Positions 1 to 7,695 of a stretch of DNA of 7,695 bases are shown here, one piece after another. The notes beneath the pieces are model-generated. The model was not told where the DNA came from, did no database searches, and saw only the letters and a list, made by a program, of their open reading frames with translations. Where the stretch lies: the IMG/VR virus record IMGVR_UViG_2778261454_000007, positions 1 to 7,695 of that record; one strand, written 5' to 3'. Source of the DNA: a virus (lineage: Duplodnaviria > Heunggongvirae > Uroviricota > Caudoviricetes). Position 1 is the first letter of the stretch; each line of letters starts with the position of its first letter. The translations under genes were made by a program, and so were the position numbers.

Positions 1-61
1 GCGGCATAACCTGAATCTGAGGCAGCACCTGGCACGGCTGGGACGGAAGTCGCTGTCGTTC

Positions 62-1270
62 TCAAAATCGGTGGAGCTGCATGACAAAGTCATCGGGCAT
101 TATCTGAACATAAAACACTATCAATAAGTTGGAGTCATTACCCGCCAGCATAGCGAAACAATATGTATCCCAATGGTCTGGTGAGTGCAGGTTGAGTTTT
201 TTCTTCATATCCTCCTTACTCATCACCTTCCATTGACCTGCGGAGTTAATCCCTACAGGGATTTTCGACGCTTCCTCAATAGTTTCATTACCCTTATCCA
301 GTCTCATACGACCAGATTTTACGGCCTCTGCGGCTTGAACGTTGGCATAAGCACGCTTATCAAAGTACAGGCTCTTATCTTCACGACTATGCATCTTTTT
401 ACCCCAGCGTATACGCTGTACGGTAATACCATAATGCTCGTACATCAGATCCGCCGTTGCTTTACCCAGGCCATCGCCGTCGATCGCTATGGTGATATTT
501 GGGAATCGCTCAGGATTACATTCTGCGAAAATTTTGGCGGCAAGCTGCGTTTCTGTAACGTCTGTGTATTCCAGCATTCGATAGTTGATTACACGGCGTT
601 TATTTCGCTGGCCGGACACCATCATGATATTGATAACGGACTTATCCCGTCCCGTACCACCAGCAACGTCCACACATGCAAGCCAGCCCCATCCTTTGGC
701 AATCTTGACTTTCCGCCGCGTTGCACGTTCAACCTCATCACGTCCAAGAAGGAAGCCATCCTGTGATTTAGGGAATAGGCCGCGTACCTTAATCATGTAC
801 ATAGGGTTATCACGCCCGCCGTACTCCGCCAGCTTCATTTTGATAAATGCTGGCGTTACCAGCGGTGATTCCTCACTGTTAAGCGTGATCGCCGTATAAA
901 CGCCATCAGGGTTACCAGGACGCTTGACCAGTTTATGGTGTGTATCGTAGAAATAGCCGCTTGGGCGTGTAGGCTGTGACAGCAATAAGATGCGGTTATC
1001 CTGTCCGGTAAGAGCACCGGTGATGATACCGAAAGCTCTATCACTGACACCGGAGGCTTCATCGATAATATACAGAAGATGATCTGCGTGTTCACCGGCG
1101 AGAGCTTCTTCACTTCCCAGACGAAAGCCCTTCGGTACTACAGTCCATACACCTTTACCAGTAACCTCATAGAAAGCGGTTTCTGTCAGAACAAAATAAT
1201 CAGCAAGCCATGGAAAACGGCTGGTGGCCGTAGCCCAGTTTATCTTGATGTACTTGAATATACCGGTCAT
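62..1270 (-). CDS. pacB: Terminase large subunit (pacase PacB-like), C-terminal 402-aa segment; same frame as 1277..1546 but separated from it by an in-frame TAG, so the intact gene would span 62..1546 (494 codons)
   Basis: Minus-strand ORF with ATG at 1268..1270. Contains a Walker-B-like [11 protein letters not shown] and a C-terminal acidic-residue nuclease-like region ([18 protein letters not shown]) typical of phage large terminases. It lies directly downstream of pacA, and the combined length of 494 aa matches my recollection of P1 PacB. Confidence 0.85.
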
Positions 1271-1276
1271 TACCTG

Positions 1277-1546
1277 CTAAATTTTGTTCGCAACGATAAT
1301 GGCACGGGCACCGGGATACATGATTATGAACAACATGATCATGATAGAAGTCATGTCTGATTTCCCGGTACCGTGACCAGACGAAACAGATGTCTTGCTA
1401 CCCTGTTCCTGCACAGACTCAATAATCAGATCCTGCTGCCAGGTAGGTGTTTTGCCGAACAAAACATCAGCGGCCGCAATCCAGTCATAACGATATAGCG
1501 CCACCAACTCGCGCCAACGTGGATCCGTTACGCAACTTCTGGCCAT
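1277..1546 (-). pseudogene. pacB: PacB N-terminal 89-aa segment terminated by an in-frame amber codon (TAG = revcomp of 1277..1279); gene appears disrupted
   Basis: ATG at 1544..1546 overlaps the pacA stop (TAATG). Carries the P-loop-like SGHGTGKS. Frame arithmetic: 1546 and 1270 are both 1 mod 3, so the two ORFs share a frame; the codons read ...ANKI-TAG-CAG-GTA-ATG(TGIF...). Confidence 0.8.
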
Positions 1547-2739
1547 TAATCATCATCCCCGTATAGCTTGCGGGTAACTTCTTCGTCTTCCTCCTCGTCT
1601 TCGTCTAGATCTTGTTCCAGCCATGGTTCGTTTGATACACCTTCAGTATCAACATCTCCATAACCGCCTGTATCAACGATATCGGCGATTTCTTCCCTAC
1701 GTTGCTCAATCCACAATGCAGCATCGGCGCGGCGGTTGGCGGCCCGTTCTCGCGCAACTTTGTCCAGATCTTCAAGAGAAGGGCCACCGACGGCTGTTTG
1801 CCTTTCCTCATCATCGGTATTGGTCTTAGGAGCACGCAGATCGGCTTTGATTTGCTCCAGCATCAGGGGCGGAACTTTCCCGCCATGCGCCTCGATGAAT
1901 TCAGCTGCTTCCAGCACTGACCAGTTATTTTCACGCTTTCGTTCGTATGCCAGCTTAACAATGCCAGCCTGCCCCATAGACAAAGCGTGCTTTTCCGCCT
2001 CCCGGCTTTCTTTTCGATAGTTATTCCGGATGCTGTAAATGGTGTTGATCAGACTGCTTATCTGCGCGGAACAGCTGTTTAGCATGCTCGCGATACGGTA
2101 TTCAGGCGGAGTACCTTCATCATCGTCTTTTTGCTGATCGCGCATTTCCTGCACCAGGCGAATACACGTATCCCTGGCGTTCTCCAGCATAAGGAGATGA
2201 GAAAGAGACTTTTCAAGAAGAGTGGTTTCCAGAACATCGGCCCCGGACCGACGCAACATAGCGCGCGCGGCCTTCCGCGCTTCAACGTTATCTATCAGGT
2301 AATCGCCAGCTTCGAATTCAAAGCGTTCACCATCATCATCCAGGGTGTCGCGTTCCAGGCGATCACGTAAGGTCCGGTGGGCGCGGGTGATCACGTCATG
2401 ATCATCTGAACGATCATTTATGCGCTTATTTTGGCGCTTCGCATTCTCGACTGCGGCACTGACAACGGCATTAACTCTCTGTTTTTCCGCTATTTCAGCC
2501 GCAATATGATCACCTGCATGTTGATCATTAGAGTGATCAATGATCATGCTTTTTAGTGGCTTCCTGACTGGCTTATTTGGCTTGCGGCTGTCCGCAGTCC
2601 TGGTGTCTTCTTTGAAGGCACGGAGATAACGACGTGCAGTATTAGGGTTAAGATTAAACTCGGCGGCATACTGTGCGATGGTGTAACCACCATCTCGCGC
2701 CAGGCGAGCAAAATTCTTCTTGTGATCGTCCCAGGTCAC
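1546..2739 (-). CDS. pacA: Small terminase / pacase subunit PacA (397 aa) with N-terminal HTH and highly acidic C-terminus
   Basis: 397-aa ORF; N-terminus [39 protein letters not shown] is HTH-like, and the C-terminus [13 protein letters not shown] is acidic. Apparent GTG start (revcomp of 2737..2739) preceded by AAGGAAG. The TGATC(A/G) hexamer clusters of a P1-type pac site lie inside its 5' third, and it is translationally coupled to pacB. Confidence 0.9.
2360..2546. other. pac-type packaging site: two clusters of TGATC(A/G) hexamers (Dam GATC sites) inside pacA
   Basis: Hexamers at 2360-2365 (CGATCA), 2388-2393, 2399-2404, 2411-2416 (CGATCA), then 2507-2512, 2522-2527, 2534-2539, 2541-2546 (TGATCA), with about 90 bp of hexamer-free DNA between the clusters. 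P1 pac is described as about 160 bp with seven TGATCA/G elements, four at one end and three at the other. Confidence 0.75.
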
Positions 2740-2824
2740 TTATGCTTCCTTTCGTAAAAACTCTTTTTGACGCGAGGGTAACGAAAGTCACATGTCAAAA
2801 GGCCCGGAACGGGCAAGCAATCAA

Positions 2825-3277
2825 TCAGATACGTGCGGATGTGGCATTACCGTAATGACGGTGCTGACGGGCCACCTTATTGAAAAGTTGACGCGCCATT
2901 ACCCAAGGCTGGTGCTCCCGGCGTTCCTTTTCGTCCTGCGTCATATAGAGTTCGTTCTGGAGTTTTTCATCAAACCGGCGCGGAGCGCGGCTACGGCGAA
3001 AGAATTCAGGATTCAGAGAGTGGATCTGAAATCTACGTGGGCGTGTACTGTCATCAATCAAAACAGACGAATACTTAGACACAGCGATAGCCTTTAAGCG
3101 CAGATAAACATCGCGCTTATCGACATCCAGATGTGGGTATTCCTTTTCAAGAATTGCTGCGAGTTCTTTCGCTGATAGAAGAGATTTAGTGCGGATCATG
3201 TAATCCGCAATCTCGTACGATGTTATTCGTGAGTGATTTATTTCCATGAAGTGGCGTCCCTGCCAGTTAAGTAACAT
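2825..3277 (-). CDS. lpa: Late promoter activator Lpa-like protein (150 aa)
   Basis: 150-aa ORF with ATG at 3275..3277 preceded by AGGTGA. It sits immediately upstream of pacA/pacB in the same orientation, which is the P1 arrangement. Identity is by recollection of P1 Lpa (gp10) and gene order, not by alignment. Confidence 0.75.
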   Translation of the reverse strand: MLLNWQGRHFMEINHSRITSYEIADYMIRTKSLLSAKELAAILEKEYPHLDVDKRDVYLRLKAIAVSKYSSVLIDDSTRPRRFQIHSLNPEFFRRSRAPRRFDEKLQNELYMTQDEKERREHQPWVMARQLFNKVARQHRHYGNATSARI

Positions 3278-3322
3278 CCTGTCACCTACTGATTAGCCCA
3301 TGTCAACTAATCAACGTGGAAT

Positions 3323-3364
3323 ATAATACCATCGATTAAAGAAATAGCAATACATTAGAGCAAT
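3323..3364 (-). promoter_or_regulatory. Putative lpa promoter (-35 TTGCTA 3345..3350, 16-bp spacer, TGG-extended -10 TATTAT 3323..3328) overlapping a C1-operator-like 17-mer (3348..3364)
   Basis: The minus strand reads ATTGCTCTAATGTATTG, versus the P1 C1 operator consensus ATTGCTCTAATAAATTT as I recall it (first 11 nt identical, 14/17 overall). A sigma70-like -35/-10 pair overlaps this site, about 45 bp upstream of the lpa ATG. Confidence 0.45.
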
Positions 3365-3365
3365 T

Positions 3366-4409
3366 TTATCTAACACTCGACGAGTGACTTGTGATAGCGC
3401 CGACTCCAAGCGCGTAATCAAAGAACAATCGTTGATGCATCGCCAGCCTACCGTGCGTCTTCTCCCAATTATCGCGGTCACGCTCAATATCACGCTGGCA
3501 TGACTGGCACAGAGGAATTGCGTAAATGTCATGCGCGCATAATCGACTATGACGAACGATATAAGGCGTAATGTAAGCGCCAGCTCCCGCCGCTCCACAC
3601 CCACAGCATGGACGGGAAGCAACAAAGTCCATGTACTCAGGTAATTTTAGCGATTGCAGTTTTGGTATTTTGAAATGCGCCATGCCAGGGTCGGAGTCAA
3701 CATCCACAGGGCATACTTTTGCACGCATCGGCGCGGCGCGTTCTTCCATCATCTGAACATATGCTGTAGCGCGATCGTCATACGGGCGAATATCCGCCTC
3801 TTTCAGAGGTCCGCTATCCTGCGTTGCGGCTTTCATCTTATTTATTGATATACGGCAAACTTCTTCCGGCATCAGGTGCATCATGTTGCGCATGAAAGCC
3901 CACCAGCACAGTTCCTGAATACTTAAATCATGGCCATCTGAAAGCCCCATTTCCTGACGGGCGACATCCAGTATCCAGTTAACGCGATTATTATGCAGCG
4001 TTTCTTTCAGCTCATTAAAACCACGCATCCGGTAATGGTTATCGTGATGCCAGCACAACAACACCGCGCTCTTGTCTCGTTCAGCGTGGACAATATGGTT
4101 GTCACACCAACTACGATCTGCGGCCTGGCATTGCCCCTCTTTCCTGCGCAACCACGCCACCAGCGAGTCAATTCCACCAATACGGTGAAACAGTTCATCG
4201 CTGTTAAAAAACGGCTGCAACGCCTCATTTGTTGCCATGGTTTGCTCGGTAACAACGAGGCCGTCTTCCATGTGCTCGATTAACTCACGCGGCACCGGCT
4301 CCATAATAAATTTACGGCCAGCCTCCACCAGCTTTCTGACCTCCTGATCCACTTTGAACGTGGCGAGGCCAAGCTCTTTCTGTACAAAGGGAGTAATTAC
4401 GGCTTTCAC
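3366..4409 (-). CDS. pdcB: Post-doc protein PdcB-like, 347 aa, function unknown; Cys/His-rich C-terminal region (CCGCG...H...CAHD...CQSC) suggests a Zn-binding, possibly HNH-like, domain
   Basis: Long minus-strand ORF with GTG start (revcomp of 4407..4409) preceded by AAAGGTG; stop at 3366..3368. Its position after doc/pdcA and before lpa matches P1 pdcB from memory. No catalytic motif is assigned with confidence. Confidence 0.65.
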
Positions 4410-4436
4410 ATCACACCTTTCATCACTGATTGGGCT

Positions 4437-4616
4437 TTATCTGCTGCCCGGCATTCTCTGTTTAAGCACAACCATTTCCTGACGGCATAACACAGCAATA
4501 GCAGTCCTGGCTCCAATTTGCTTACCAACCAGGTATTGCTTTACCTCGCGGCGACTCACGCCATCAAGAAGCATCTTTAACGCTTCACGGGACAATTTGT
4601 TGTATTTGCGTGCCAT
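4437..4616 (-). CDS. pdcA: Small post-doc protein (59 aa from ATG 4614..4616; the ORF track extends to 4637), possible HTH-containing regulator
   Basis: ATG at 4614..4616 lies 5 nt after the doc stop and is preceded by GGAG; the longer start at 4637 would overlap doc. The sequence LSREALKMLLDGVSRREVKQYLVG is helix-turn-helix-like. The gene symbol is assigned by position only. Confidence 0.5.
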   Translation of the reverse strand: MARKYNKLSREALKMLLDGVSRREVKQYLVGKQIGARTAIAVLCRQEMVVLKQRMPGSR

Positions 4617-4620
4617 TAAT

Positions 4621-5001
4621 CTACTCCGCAGAACCATACAATCTACGTAACGTGTCGGCGACAGAAGATACAGATATCTCGCCAGTCGCAGCGCCTACAG
4701 TAAGGTCTGCCAGTTCAGGTGAATCAAATACCTGCACTCCGTTACGGCGTAGAAATAGCAGCGCACTGTTTAGCGCGGTACGCTTATTGGCATCATTGAA
4801 TATATGCCCTCTCGCTGTAGCCACCAGGTAGGTGGCGGAGACTTCGAAAAGGTCGGTGATATCTTCGTAGGCAACTCTGGCCTGAACTCTCCCGATAATG
4901 GCCTCTGCCCTACCCGGATCTGACATTCCCGGCAGGCCGCCGTAGCGGCTTATATTCGCATCATGAAGCGCAATAAGTTCTTCCGGTGATATATGCCTCA
5001 T
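4621..5001 (-). CDS. doc: Doc toxin (death on curing; Fic-fold kinase), 126 aa
   Basis: Contains the Fic-type motif HIFNDANKR. Length and sequence match my recollection of P1 Doc. The start ATG (4999..5001) overlaps the phd stop (5001..5003) as TAATG. Confidence 0.95.
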
Positions 5002-5222
5002 TATCGGTTAACCAGTTCCTTGTTGGTGGAGTCCAGGGTGTCAAACAGGGATGCAAATTCAGCATCCAGCGCCGCTTTTTTGTAGGCTTCGAAAGTAGCC
5101 TTGCTGACAATTACTGCTGGCTCACGGCCTCTGCGGGTGATTTCAACCTCTTCCCCGGCTTCAACATTGTTGAGCACTTCAGAAAGGTTGCCGCGCGCGG
5201 TACGGAAGTTAATGGATTGCAT
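5001..5222 (-). CDS. phd: Phd antitoxin (prevent host death), 73 aa from ATG 5220..5222
   Basis: [41 protein letters not shown]... matches my recollection of P1 Phd. GAGGTG sits 4 nt upstream of the ATG at 5222. The ORF-track start at 5228 is a GTG two codons upstream and is less likely. Confidence 0.93.
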
Positions 5223-5228
5223 AAACAC

Positions 5229-5259
5229 CTCGTGTACTCGTTATGTGTACACAATTATA
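5229..5259 (-). promoter_or_regulatory. phd-doc promoter and operator: -10 TATAAT (revcomp of 5254..5259) followed by palindrome TGTGTACACA (5244..5253) and a second GTGTAC-containing imperfect palindrome (5231..5240)
   Basis: The minus strand reads GTTTATAATTGTGTACACATAACGAGTACACGAGGTGTTTATG. Phd is known to autorepress by binding palindromic operator sites that overlap its promoter. Confidence 0.7.
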
Positions 5260-5354
5260 AACTTCACAGGCATAAAGCACCAGCACTTTGCGGCTTAACA
5301 AACCTCTAGGCAGGTCATTCGTAGCCTAATGTCCGAACTGCTAAAGCATCCAAG

Positions 5355-5366
5355 TTGCTGTAGAAT
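5355..5366 (+). promoter_or_regulatory. Possible hsdM promoter -10 element TAGAAT (5361..5366); no convincing -35
   Basis: This is the only reasonable -10-like hexamer within 40 bp upstream of the hsdM ATG. Support is weak. Confidence 0.25.
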
Positions 5367-5398
5367 CACCGCCAATTACATAAGCCTGAAATAAGTGG

Positions 5399-6961
5399 AT
5401 GAAAATGACAAGTATTCAACAACGTGCAGAGCTTCATCGTCAAATCTGGCAAATTGCTAACGATGTCAGAGGTTCGGTCGATGGATGGGATTTTAAGCAA
5501 TACGTTCTGGGCGCGCTTTTCTACCGTTTTATCAGCGAAAATTTTTCCAGCTATATTGAAGCCGGTGATGACAGCATCTGTTATGCGAAACTGGATGACA
5601 GCGTAATTACTGATGACATTAAAGACGATGCCATCAAAACCAAAGGCTACTTCATCTACCCAAGTCAGCTTTTCTGCAACGTAGCTGCGAAAGCAAATAC
5701 CAATGACAGACTGAACGCAGATTTAAACAGCATCTTCGTTGCTATCGAAAGTTCTGCTTACGGTTATCCTTCAGAAGCAGACATCAAAGGTTTGTTTGCT
5801 GATTTCGATACCACCAGTAACCGCCTGGGTAACACCGTTAAAGATAAAAATGCCCGCCTGGCTGCGGTTCTGAAAGGGGTTGAAGGGTTAAAGCTTGGCG
5901 ACTTTAACGAACATCAGATTGACCTGTTCGGCGATGCCTATGAGTTCCTGATTTCTAACTATGCCGCGAATGCCGGTAAGTCAGGCGGCGAGTTCTTTAC
6001 ACCGCAGCACGTCTCTAAGCTGATTGCACAACTGGCAATGCACGGCCAGACCCACGTTAACAAAATCTACGACCCGGCAGCAGGTTCCGGTTCGCTGTTG
6101 TTGCAGGCTAAAAAACAGTTTGATGACCATATCATCGAAGAAGGTTTTTTTGGTCAGGAAATCAACCATACGACCTATAACCTGGCGCGTATGAACATGT
6201 TTTTGCACAACATCAACTACGACAAGTTTGATATCAAGTTGGGCAATACGCTGACTGAGCCGCACTTCAGAGATGAAAAACCGTTTGATGCCATCGTTTC
6301 TAACCCGCCGTATTCGGTGAAATGGATTGGCAGCGATGACCCGACGCTGATTAACGATGAACGTTTTGCCCCGGCTGGCGTTCTGGCCCCCAAATCCAAA
6401 GCTGACTTTGCGTTTGTATTACATGCGCTGAACTATCTTTCTGCCAAAGGTCGTGCTGCGATTGTCTGCTTCCCGGGCATTTTTTACCGTGGCGGCGCGG
6501 AGCAGAAAATCCGTCAGTATCTGGTTGACAATAACTATGTCGAAACCGTGATTTCACTCGCACCGAACCTGTTCTTTGGCACCACCATTGCCGTCAATAT
6601 TCTGGTGTTGTCTAAACATAAAACGGATACCAACGTTCAGTTTATTGATGCCAGCGAGCTGTTCAAAAAAGAGACTAACAACAACATTCTGACCGATGCC
6701 CATATCGAACAGATTATGCAGGTATTTGCCAGCAAGGAAGATGTTGCTCATCTGGCGAAATCTGTCGCGTTTGAGACCGTTGTCGCGAATGACTATAACC
6801 TGTCGGTGAGCAGCTATGTGGAAGCGAAAGATACTCGCGAAATTATCGATATCGCTGAGTTGAATGCAGAGCTGAAAACCACGGTCAGCAAAATCGACCA
6901 GTTGCGTAAAGATATTGATGCGATTGTGGCTGAAATTGAAGGCTGCGAGGTGCAAAAATGA
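5399..6961 (+). CDS. hsdM: Type I restriction-modification methyltransferase subunit HsdM, type IC (EcoR124I/EcoDXXI/EcoprrI family), 520 aa
   Basis: N6-adenine methyltransferase motifs are present: AdoMet-binding [10 protein letters not shown] (6071..6100) and catalytic NPPY (6302..6313). The N-terminus [25 protein letters not shown] and the 520-aa length match my recollection of EcoR124I HsdM. The stop overlaps the hsdS start (ATGA, 6958..6961). Confidence 0.95.
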
Positions 6962-7695
6962 GCGAGTTGAGTTATCTGGAAAAATTGCTGGATGGGGTTG
7001 AGGTTAAATGGAAAGCAGTGGGCGATATCGCCGGGTATTCAACAACCAAAGTTGATGCTGATAAACTTGATGCCACTTCATTCGTTGGCGTTGATAATCT
7101 CCTTGCTGATAAAGGCGGTCGCATTGATGCCACCTATCAGCCTAATACGGCACGTTTAACTGCCTATGAGCCAGGTGATATTCTTTTAGGTAATATTCGC
7201 CCATATTTAAAGAAAGTTTGGATGGCGGAGAATAATGGCGGGTGCAGTGGTGATGTCCTTGCTATACGCATTTTAGCAGACTGTAAAAAAATTATTAGTC
7301 CAGAATATCTCTACTATGCATTATCGTCGGATTCATTTTTTTCTTACAGTATGCAGCACGCTAAAGGGGCAAAGATGCCTCGAGGCAGTAAAGATGCAAT
7401 TTTAAACTATCAAATACCCATCCCTTGTCCCAGCGCCCCGGAAAAATCCCTTGCCATCCAGTCTGAAATTGTTCGGATTCTGGATAAATTTACTGAGCTT
7501 ACAGCAGAGCTTACAGCAGAGCTTACAGCAGAGCTTAGCATGCGTAAAAAACAATACAACTACTATCGCGACCAGTTGTTGAGTTTTAAAGAGGATGAGG
7601 TTGAGGGTAAGAGGAAAACCTTAGGGGAAATTATGAAGATGCGTGCCGGACAACATATTTCGGCTCATAATATAAATGAAAGAAAAGAAGAGAGT
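6958..7695 (+). CDS. hsdS: Type I R-M specificity subunit HsdS, 5' partial (246 codons; continues past window end): N-terminal target-recognition domain plus central conserved region with TAEL repeats
   Basis: ATG at 6958..6960 overlaps the hsdM stop. The conserved N-terminus [16 protein letters not shown] and the central region [49 protein letters not shown] are typical of type IC HsdS. There is no stop codon before the window end. Confidence 0.9.
7495..7536 (+). repeat. Tandem 12-bp repeat ACAGCAGAGCTT x3 (7501..7536) preceded by a 6-bp partial copy GAGCTT (7495..7500), in frame, encoding (T)[14 protein letters not shown] in the HsdS central spacer region
   Basis: Three perfect tandem copies are visible in the sequence. 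In the EcoR124I/EcoR124II system the copy number of this 12-bp unit (two versus three) sets the spacer length of the recognition site (N6 versus N7). Confidence 0.9.

Follow-up and report, generated by a model that had tools for sequence, protein, structure and literature searches.

Does the short tandem repeat in the hsdS gene that closes the viral record IMGVR_UViG_2778261454_000007 set the DNA sequence recognised by the encoded restriction-modification enzyme, and can changes in its copy number reset that sequence in nature? The window, i.e. the whole stretch of 7,695 nucleotides that was analysed (positions 1 to 7,695 of that record), ends within this gene, which encodes the specificity subunit of a type IC system. 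We consider it highly probable that the answer is yes and that the locus is an EcoR124-family hsdS gene beside phd/doc, the three-copy TAEL spacer of which changes the gap between the two half-sites of the target when a copy is gained or lost. Identical or nearly identical loci that differ by whole repeat units are at the centre of the evidence, together with the reading of the array itself and the geometry of the helix in which it lies.

The two hsd genes of the window lie on the plus strand and overlap. hsdM (5399..6961) is an intact open reading frame (ORF) of 520 amino acids in the ORF list, with the Pfam domains HsdM_N and N6_Mtase, and encodes the type IC methyltransferase subunit; residues 1-520 align with EcoR124 HsdM (7bst_D) at 1162 bits, while the next solved relative reaches 332 bits. 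The ATG of hsdS at 6958 overlaps the stop codon of hsdM as ATGA, and the frame stays open to the end of the window, which cuts the gene after its first 246 codons (6958..7695). The partial product matches Pfam Methylase_S and has EcoR124 HsdS as its best solved relative (7bst_A, E=1.8e-49), with residues 1-25 and a central block (IPIPCP onwards) nearly identical and only scattered identities over residues ~26-150. Its organisation is that of type IC subunits, and the window holds the conserved N-terminus, the first target-recognition domain (TRD1), the central helix with the TAEL repeats and the start of the second domain (TRD2); the conserved C-terminal part lies beyond the window and is present in the sibling genes P0122 and pLR-06-2, the full-length products of which have 395 amino acids (two copies) and 423 amino acids (nine copies), respectively. 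Sibling contigs three single-nucleotide polymorphisms away from the window encode a 1038-amino-acid HsdR with an EcoR124_C domain, in a stretch that corresponds to sequence beyond the window itself, and in these contigs of the two-copy form hsdM, hsdS and hsdR are all intact, with hsdR directly following hsdS. Three criteria delimit the type I families, namely complementation, antibody cross-reaction and sequence. By the last of these, the HsdM match and the Methylase_S and EcoR124 HsdS matches identify the end of the window as the hsdM-hsdS pair of an EcoR124-family type IC system, including the 5' two-thirds of hsdS, with a TRD1 unlike that of EcoR124I.

Within hsdS the 12-base-pair (bp) unit ACAGCAGAGCTT occurs exactly three times head-to-tail at 7501..7536 and encodes TAEL three times in the first dimerisation helix (D1), where the three perfect copies would act as a “ruler” of spacer length. 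The 36-mer made up of the three units occurs once in the window and was absent from all of 200 shuffles. Tandem Repeats Finder places the array at 7495-7537 with a period of 12, 3.6 copies and 100% matches; the additional 0.6 copy consists of GAGCTT from the preceding partial copy ACT GAG CTT (TEL, 7492..7500; EcoR124 has ACT GCA CTT, TAL) and of one trailing A. In the known pair of enzymes the 12-bp unit is present twice in EcoR124I (GAA N6 RTCG) and three times in EcoR124II (GAA N7 RTCG) (PMC3874165), so that EcoR124II carries a third TAEL (PMC3874165, PMC10644984). The chain 7bst_A is labelled EcoR124II via the UniProt mapping, yet reads two full copies after a 3-codon partial copy; this same protein is also the product of L112 and L114, in which ACCGCTGAGCTT stands twice. 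EcoR124I thus reads TAL plus two TAEL, whereas the window reads TEL plus three. The D1 linker between ILDKF and RKKQY has 17 residues in the window, as in the EcoR124II type, but 13 in EcoR124I. Judged by copy count and linker length, the array is in the three-copy state of EcoR124II, unlike EcoR124I. The possibility that the partial copy, once counted, turns the window into the EcoR124I state was rejected: EcoR124 has an equal 3-codon partial copy, and counting it therefore leaves the window in the EcoR124II state. What the earlier note had claimed of this gene holds in each part that could be tested, which here concerns its membership in the EcoR124 family (from the end-to-end match of HsdM and the matches of the HsdS N-terminus and central region), the three tandem units at 7501..7536 (in the sequence and by Tandem Repeats Finder) and their EcoR124II-type state, which counting the partial copy does not overturn.

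What such a state means for recognition can be deduced from the geometry of the subunit. HsdS runs from a conserved N-terminal piece through TRD1, D1 and TRD2 to the second dimerisation helix (D2). D1 and D2 pair as an antiparallel coiled coil, by which the two DNA-reading domains are held at a fixed distance and rotation, and this in turn sets how many unspecified base pairs separate the half-sites. In the genomes of various species and in viral contigs 125 related loci were collected, and the linker, taken as the residues between the ILDxF and RKKQY motifs (RQKQY at D2), was measured for both helices, giving 111 D1 and 105 D2 helices from 126 loci. The D2 linker has 17 residues in 105 of 105 cases, while the D1 linker has 13 residues in 65, 17 in 40, and 9, 5 or 41 in two cases each. 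Since D2 is always 17 residues long and three copies also give a D1 of 17 residues, the three-copy D1 exactly matches D2 in length, and the three-copy array is the symmetric, canonical state. This fits the view in a review that three copies appear to be optimal (PMC3874165). EcoR124II, EcoDXXI and EcoprrI share this state of equal D1 and D2 length, and their methylated adenines lie 8 bp apart, corresponding to an N7 gap for half-sites of 3 and 4 bp. The window enzyme is predicted to recognise the TRD1 half-site, an N7-type gap and the TRD2 half-site, both half-sites differing from those of EcoR124. Since the units are identical in DNA and lie in frame, slipped-strand mispairing or unequal crossing-over could add or remove whole TAEL turns without destroying the gene, and with two copies instead of three the gap would be one base pair shorter, the difference that separates EcoR124I from EcoR124II. 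EcoDXXI and EcoprrI both carry three copies as well. Experimentally, hybrids in which the copy number was altered shifted the gap as predicted (PMC3874165), and deletion of one of the three TAEL units converted EcoR124II to EcoR124I with the expected shift in phage restriction (PMC10644984).

The copy number does vary between close relatives of the window. The nearest complete record, the E. coli plasmid pLR-06-2 (NZ_AP025548.1, L001), carries nine TAEL copies at 13493-13615, opposite window 7492-7542, and differs from the window over 5301-7695 (2.4 kb) by two substitutions, one 1-nucleotide indel and 72 extra bases, i.e. six units. The indel, an insertion (CTAACG to CTAAACG) that lies opposite window position about 5459, puts hsdM of the plasmid out of frame. 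When the window hsdS was completed from pLR-06-2 and this full-length composite served as the query, the search returned P0122 and P0123, which combine the TRD1 and TRD2 of the window with two copies; P0122 was traced to seven contigs in assemblies from NCBI, Logan and ENA. Two such two-copy contigs, L150 and L153, differ from window 958-7695 (6.7 kb) by three substitutions and one 12-bp unit, so that a single TRD1+TRD2 allele is seen with two copies, three copies (the window) and nine copies. That the count of three is itself an assembly artefact, through collapse or mis-counting of the array, is highly improbable: tandem repeats are a classic place of assembly error and the nearest complete record has nine copies, but the array spans only 36-108 bp, which is below the usual read length, three-copy arrays of ACAGCAGAGCTT are present in many independent assemblies (L100, L101, L155, L156), and the window differs from pLR-06-2 at further positions and hence represents a separate molecule.

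Variation is also seen on other backgrounds. The chromosomal hsdMSR loci of E. coli CI5 (three copies) and WAT (two copies), the TRD1 of which is identical in amino acids to that of the window, show 0 mismatches over 5.6 kb and are one unit apart; by span arithmetic, four genomes are CI5-like and at least eight WAT-like. The loci L154 (three copies) and L141 (two copies) have TRD1 in common, together with a third kind of TRD2. Strain Esc29 (L148) carries four copies of ACAGCAGAGCTT, whereas Esc1-Esc28 and the clinical isolate CNR20191027 (L156) carry three, and over 3.2 kb the extra unit is all that distinguishes Esc29 from Esc18 (L155) and CNR20191027, with the array at locus position 1564. 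This allele differs from that of the window but uses the same unit, and wild isolates have it with one, two or three copies. Esc1-29, the genomes of which are near-identical, and CNR20191027 appear to be a clonal series, and the Esc strains may be laboratory derivatives; their records mark no host or source, and a search for a paper on the history of the strains found none. The two- and three-copy variants for which the earlier note had proposed to look in related genomes are present (L150/L153 against the window, CI5 against WAT), and its proposal that the repeat is a site of specificity variation agrees with these otherwise identical or near-identical loci of different copy number. The evidence for switching consists of polymorphism and of one change from three to four copies (1 of 29) in an apparent clonal series, and falls short of phase variation in the strict sense of switching back and forth frequently inside a clone.

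It could be argued that the TAEL array is a conserved feature of D1 that is in practice fixed, with no switching beyond ordinary indel mutation. Indeed, 105 of 111 D1 helices have either two or three copies, which indicates a strong constraint on length; an array of three 12-bp units gives slippage little to act on, and 28 of the 29 Esc genomes kept three copies. Nevertheless, loci identical at every other base differ by one unit (CI5 and WAT; Esc29), one allele is found with 2, 3 and 9 copies and another with 1, 2, 3 and 4, and units resemble each other within an array yet have diverged from lineage to lineage. The last point emerges from a comparison of units, which are identical in DNA within most arrays, while lineages differ synonymously (ACCGCTGAGCTT, ACAGCAGAGCTT, ACCGCCGAGCTG, GAGGCGGAGCTG and others); such identity within and divergence between is the signature of ongoing gain and loss. 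In an evenly spaced sample of 58 records from E. coli that contain the central region of type IC, 27 arrays have two copies, 25 three, two four and one five, the two four-copy arrays and the five-copy array having been checked by reading the sequences. A fixed array is, on balance, distinctly unlikely.

Arrays can grow considerably longer. A scan of IMG/VR for at least four copies of ACAGCAGAGCTT found none, while the same scan of metagenomes found 11 contigs (L127-L137) with 4 to 8 copies. The HsdS genes on these contigs, one of them from a human gut metagenome, differ much in sequence and share the form ILDxFTEL(TAEL)nTARKKQYEYYRD. Full-length open genes with long arrays are those of L131 and L134 (four copies each), L128 (seven copies) and L063, a metagenome-assembled alphaproteobacterial genome with nine full LEAE units and a 41-residue linker as in pLR-06-2. 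The two 41-residue D1 linkers, TAEL in E. coli pLR-06-2 and LEAE in the uncultured alphaproteobacterium, are unrelated in DNA and equal in length. Since one allele has 2, 3 and 9 copies, since intact genes have 4, 7 and 9-10, and since the two 41-residue linkers are equal, it is conceivable, though we would give it little credence, that the array of the plasmid lineage is a multi-state device, and that long arrays are functional, either with a longer or flexible gap or as a reversible “parked” state. If true, such an array would allow mobile elements to alter restriction specificity, or to silence it, by degrees. Enzymes with an altered repeat number reportedly showed relaxed specificity in work by Gubler and Bickle in 1991. 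Of the four E. coli arrays with at least four copies that were read, three are in disrupted systems, in which hsdS is cut by ISEc45 (L146, strain JA0072) or by IS3 (L147, strain E89) or hsdM is frameshifted (L001, pLR-06-2). The five-copy and one four-copy hsdS are thus cut by insertion sequence (IS) elements, while the four-copy gene of Esc29 is intact. These few cases hint that expansion past three or four copies may be commoner in systems that are already broken, and that long arrays may build up once function has been lost.

Disruption of this kind raises the question of whether the system of the window is itself a decaying, non-functional remnant, the repeat state of which has no phenotypic meaning. 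The backbone of the window is a decayed P1-like plasmid: pacB (62-1546, minus strand) is split by an in-frame TAG at 1277-1279 into ORFs of 89 and 402 amino acids and lacks the final 26 codons, which are replaced where IS1 adjoins near 143, and the first ~135 bases of the window match thousands of places in E. coli genomes. The frameshifted hsdM and nine-copy array of pLR-06-2, the closest record, and the location of the E. coli five-copy array and of one of the two four-copy arrays in IS-cut hsdS genes point in the same direction. By contrast, hsdM of the window is an intact ORF of 520 amino acids with a product essentially the same as EcoR124 HsdM, the frame of hsdS stays open as far as the window reaches, and the two-copy sibling contigs keep hsdM, hsdS and hsdR intact, so that a remnant seems unlikely, if somewhat less so than a fixed array.

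The reading that we prefer, of an EcoR124-family specificity gene with a three-copy spacer that alters the gap by gain or loss of copies, has several points against it. hsdS is truncated by the window and hsdR lies outside it, so that this particular copy is presumed to be active, and the gap length and half-sites of its allele are predictions. The experimental support for the gap rule covers two and three copies (PMC3874165, PMC10644984). The host element is decayed, as shown by the TAG and the IS1 cut in pacB, and the hsdM of its nearest relative is frameshifted. Furthermore, some of the differences between two and three copies among genes that share TRD1 go along with different D1 flanks (TAL/NM versus TEL/SM), and for these recombination within the conserved region is a better explanation than slippage. 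What the gene is, its repeat state, the difference in TRD1 and the polymorphism in isogenic backgrounds are directly observed, whereas we infer the gap length, the activity of the system, and the rate and reversibility of switching.

The domains on either side of the array decide what the enzyme would read. On the plus strand, the conserved N-terminal segment (amino acids 1-19, 6958..7014) is near-identical to residues 1-19 of EcoR124 HsdS; in type IC subunits, which follow a logic of circular permutation, this segment belongs to the region of the second dimerisation helix (PMC3874165). It is followed by TRD1 (amino acids about 20-152, 7015..7413), the predicted recognition domain for the 5' half-site, by the central conserved region with D1 (7414..7605), which is almost identical to residues 145-200 of EcoR124 HsdS, and by the first 30 codons of TRD2 (7606..7695), which continues as in pLR-06-2 and P0122. 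Two non-synonymous changes set the window apart from pLR-06-2 and L150/L153/P0122: the conserved N-terminus has E17K through an A at 7006, and TRD2 has I240N near its beginning through an A at 7676; a lysine at residue 17 is also found in the unrelated Esc18 allele. The D1 allele of the window (TEL, ACAGCAGAGCTT units, SM) is also joined to other TRD1s, in L100 and L101. TRD2, as judged from the part in the window and from the sibling genes, is unrelated to that of EcoR124I. TRD1 shows no real similarity to the EcoR124I TRD1 either, its alignment with 7bst_A being nominal over ~26-150, in agreement with the difference claimed in the earlier note, and the string of TRD1 quoted there is present at amino acids 42-88.

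TRD1 is nonetheless widespread. At least 80% of the hsdS segment of the window is present in 65 complete E. coli records; TRD1 occurs on Klebsiella, Raoultella and E. coli plasmids and, at 94-96% identity, in three viral contigs, and it is 99-100% identical in E. coli B771, CI5, WAT, CP53, CH427, pLR-06-2 and others. At least seven different TRD2s are combined with it. As for its pairing with the TRD2 of the window, pLR-06-2 was the sole case in complete E. coli genomes and PLSDB plasmids, and the two-copy assemblies have it too. More distant relatives, 65-78% identical, are spread over many phyla (Thiomicrospira, Arthrospira, Planctomycetota, Actinomycetes and others), and domains 50-57% identical to TRD1 fill the TRD2 position of other genes. 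On the chromosome of E. coli B771 (L140, 2501-3724) an HsdS combines the TRD1 of the window with a TRD2 that is 51% identical to it and belongs to the same TRD family, so that both halves of this enzyme may read related half-sites. In a protein search with TRD1 alone the best relatives, from many phyla, are almost all 140-240 amino acids long, about half the size of an HsdS, which may stem either from the way the search tool selects candidates or from single-TRD (half) S subunits with this domain being truly abundant.

Since TRD1 is common in sequenced E. coli, its motif is very probably already in REBASE. The protein search with TRD1 alone gave nothing but short or unnamed proteins and no characterised match, TRD1 peptides had no match in paper text, and an exact-sequence cluster look-up showed the HsdS of pLR-06-2, of the composite and of CI5 to be mostly absent. 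The C-terminal TRD of EcoDXXI (GAAY) resembles the TRD1 of EcoR124I (GAA), and among 104 full-length genes there was no HsdS with a TRD2 like the EcoR124I TRD1. The motifs in the supplement of PMC4752239 include none for species in which TRD1 relatives were found, and a search for a methylome paper on E. coli CI5 found none.

Upstream of hsdM, on the opposite strand, lie phd, doc, pdcA, pdcB (DUF968), lpa, pacA and pacB of the P1-like element. In phage P1, phd is followed by humD, lxr, hot and pmg genes, whereas in the window it is followed by the hsd cassette, which replaces humD-lxr-hot-pmgVUT; a cassette after phd is also found in many P1-like plasmids and in one phage, vB_EcoM-673R5. According to the P1 annotation (AF234172, L138), the stretch that precedes the EcoDXXI hsd locus is 98% identical to doc/phd (6154-6832), and the pmgT/pap region (10319-10538) has its match downstream of hsd in both EcoDXXI and R124/3. 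This indicates that the classic type IC systems occupy the same P1-like slot as the cassette of the window.

The family is well understood, the three-copy state is common, and the mechanism that sets the gap length has been known since the late 1980s; the findings leave the understanding of how a type IC system works unchanged. What the analysis contributes is the population evidence of natural switching on the TRD1 and repeat unit of the window, and the existence of arrays well beyond three copies. The switch between EcoR124I and EcoR124II is no laboratory curiosity, as a single unit is all that separates some natural E. coli loci, forms with two and with three copies are of about equal frequency in E. 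coli, and longer arrays exist. For annotation, hsdS of the window should be read as a type IC specificity gene in the EcoR124II state, with a predicted target of half-site, N7-type gap and half-site, and the prediction of methylation motifs and restriction barriers needs the repeat count in addition to the TRD content.

Among known systems, EcoR124II (EcoR124/3, GAA N7 RTCG) is the closest: HsdM is essentially identical, the architecture, N-terminal segment and central region of HsdS match, and both genes have three TAEL after a 3-codon partial copy, a 17-residue D1 linker and an overlap of hsdM and hsdS. By contrast, TRD1 is unrelated, as is TRD2 in the part seen and in the siblings, the unit is ACCGCTGAGCTT instead of ACAGCAGAGCTT, the partial copy reads TAL instead of TEL, and the array is followed by NM instead of SM. 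EcoR124I (GAA N6 RTCG, structure 7BST) shares family and architecture but has two TAEL, a 13-residue linker and other TRDs. EcoDXXI (TCA N7 RTTC) and EcoprrI (CCA N7 RTGC) have three TAEL copies like the window (PMC3874165). The hsd locus of EcoDXXI sits, according to the P1 annotation, in the same slot beside phd. EcoprrI carries prrC between hsdS and hsdR, which directly adjoin each other in the siblings of the window. In Mycoplasma pneumoniae, a different organism with HsdS of another family and multiple hsdS paralogues, in-frame 12-bp repeats likewise encode tetrapeptides (ELSA/TELS) in the coiled-coil helices (PMC8836594), and their number varies widely between strains and, according to earlier work cited there, also between passages of a single strain (PMC8836594). 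These genes are a precedent for arrays far beyond three copies.

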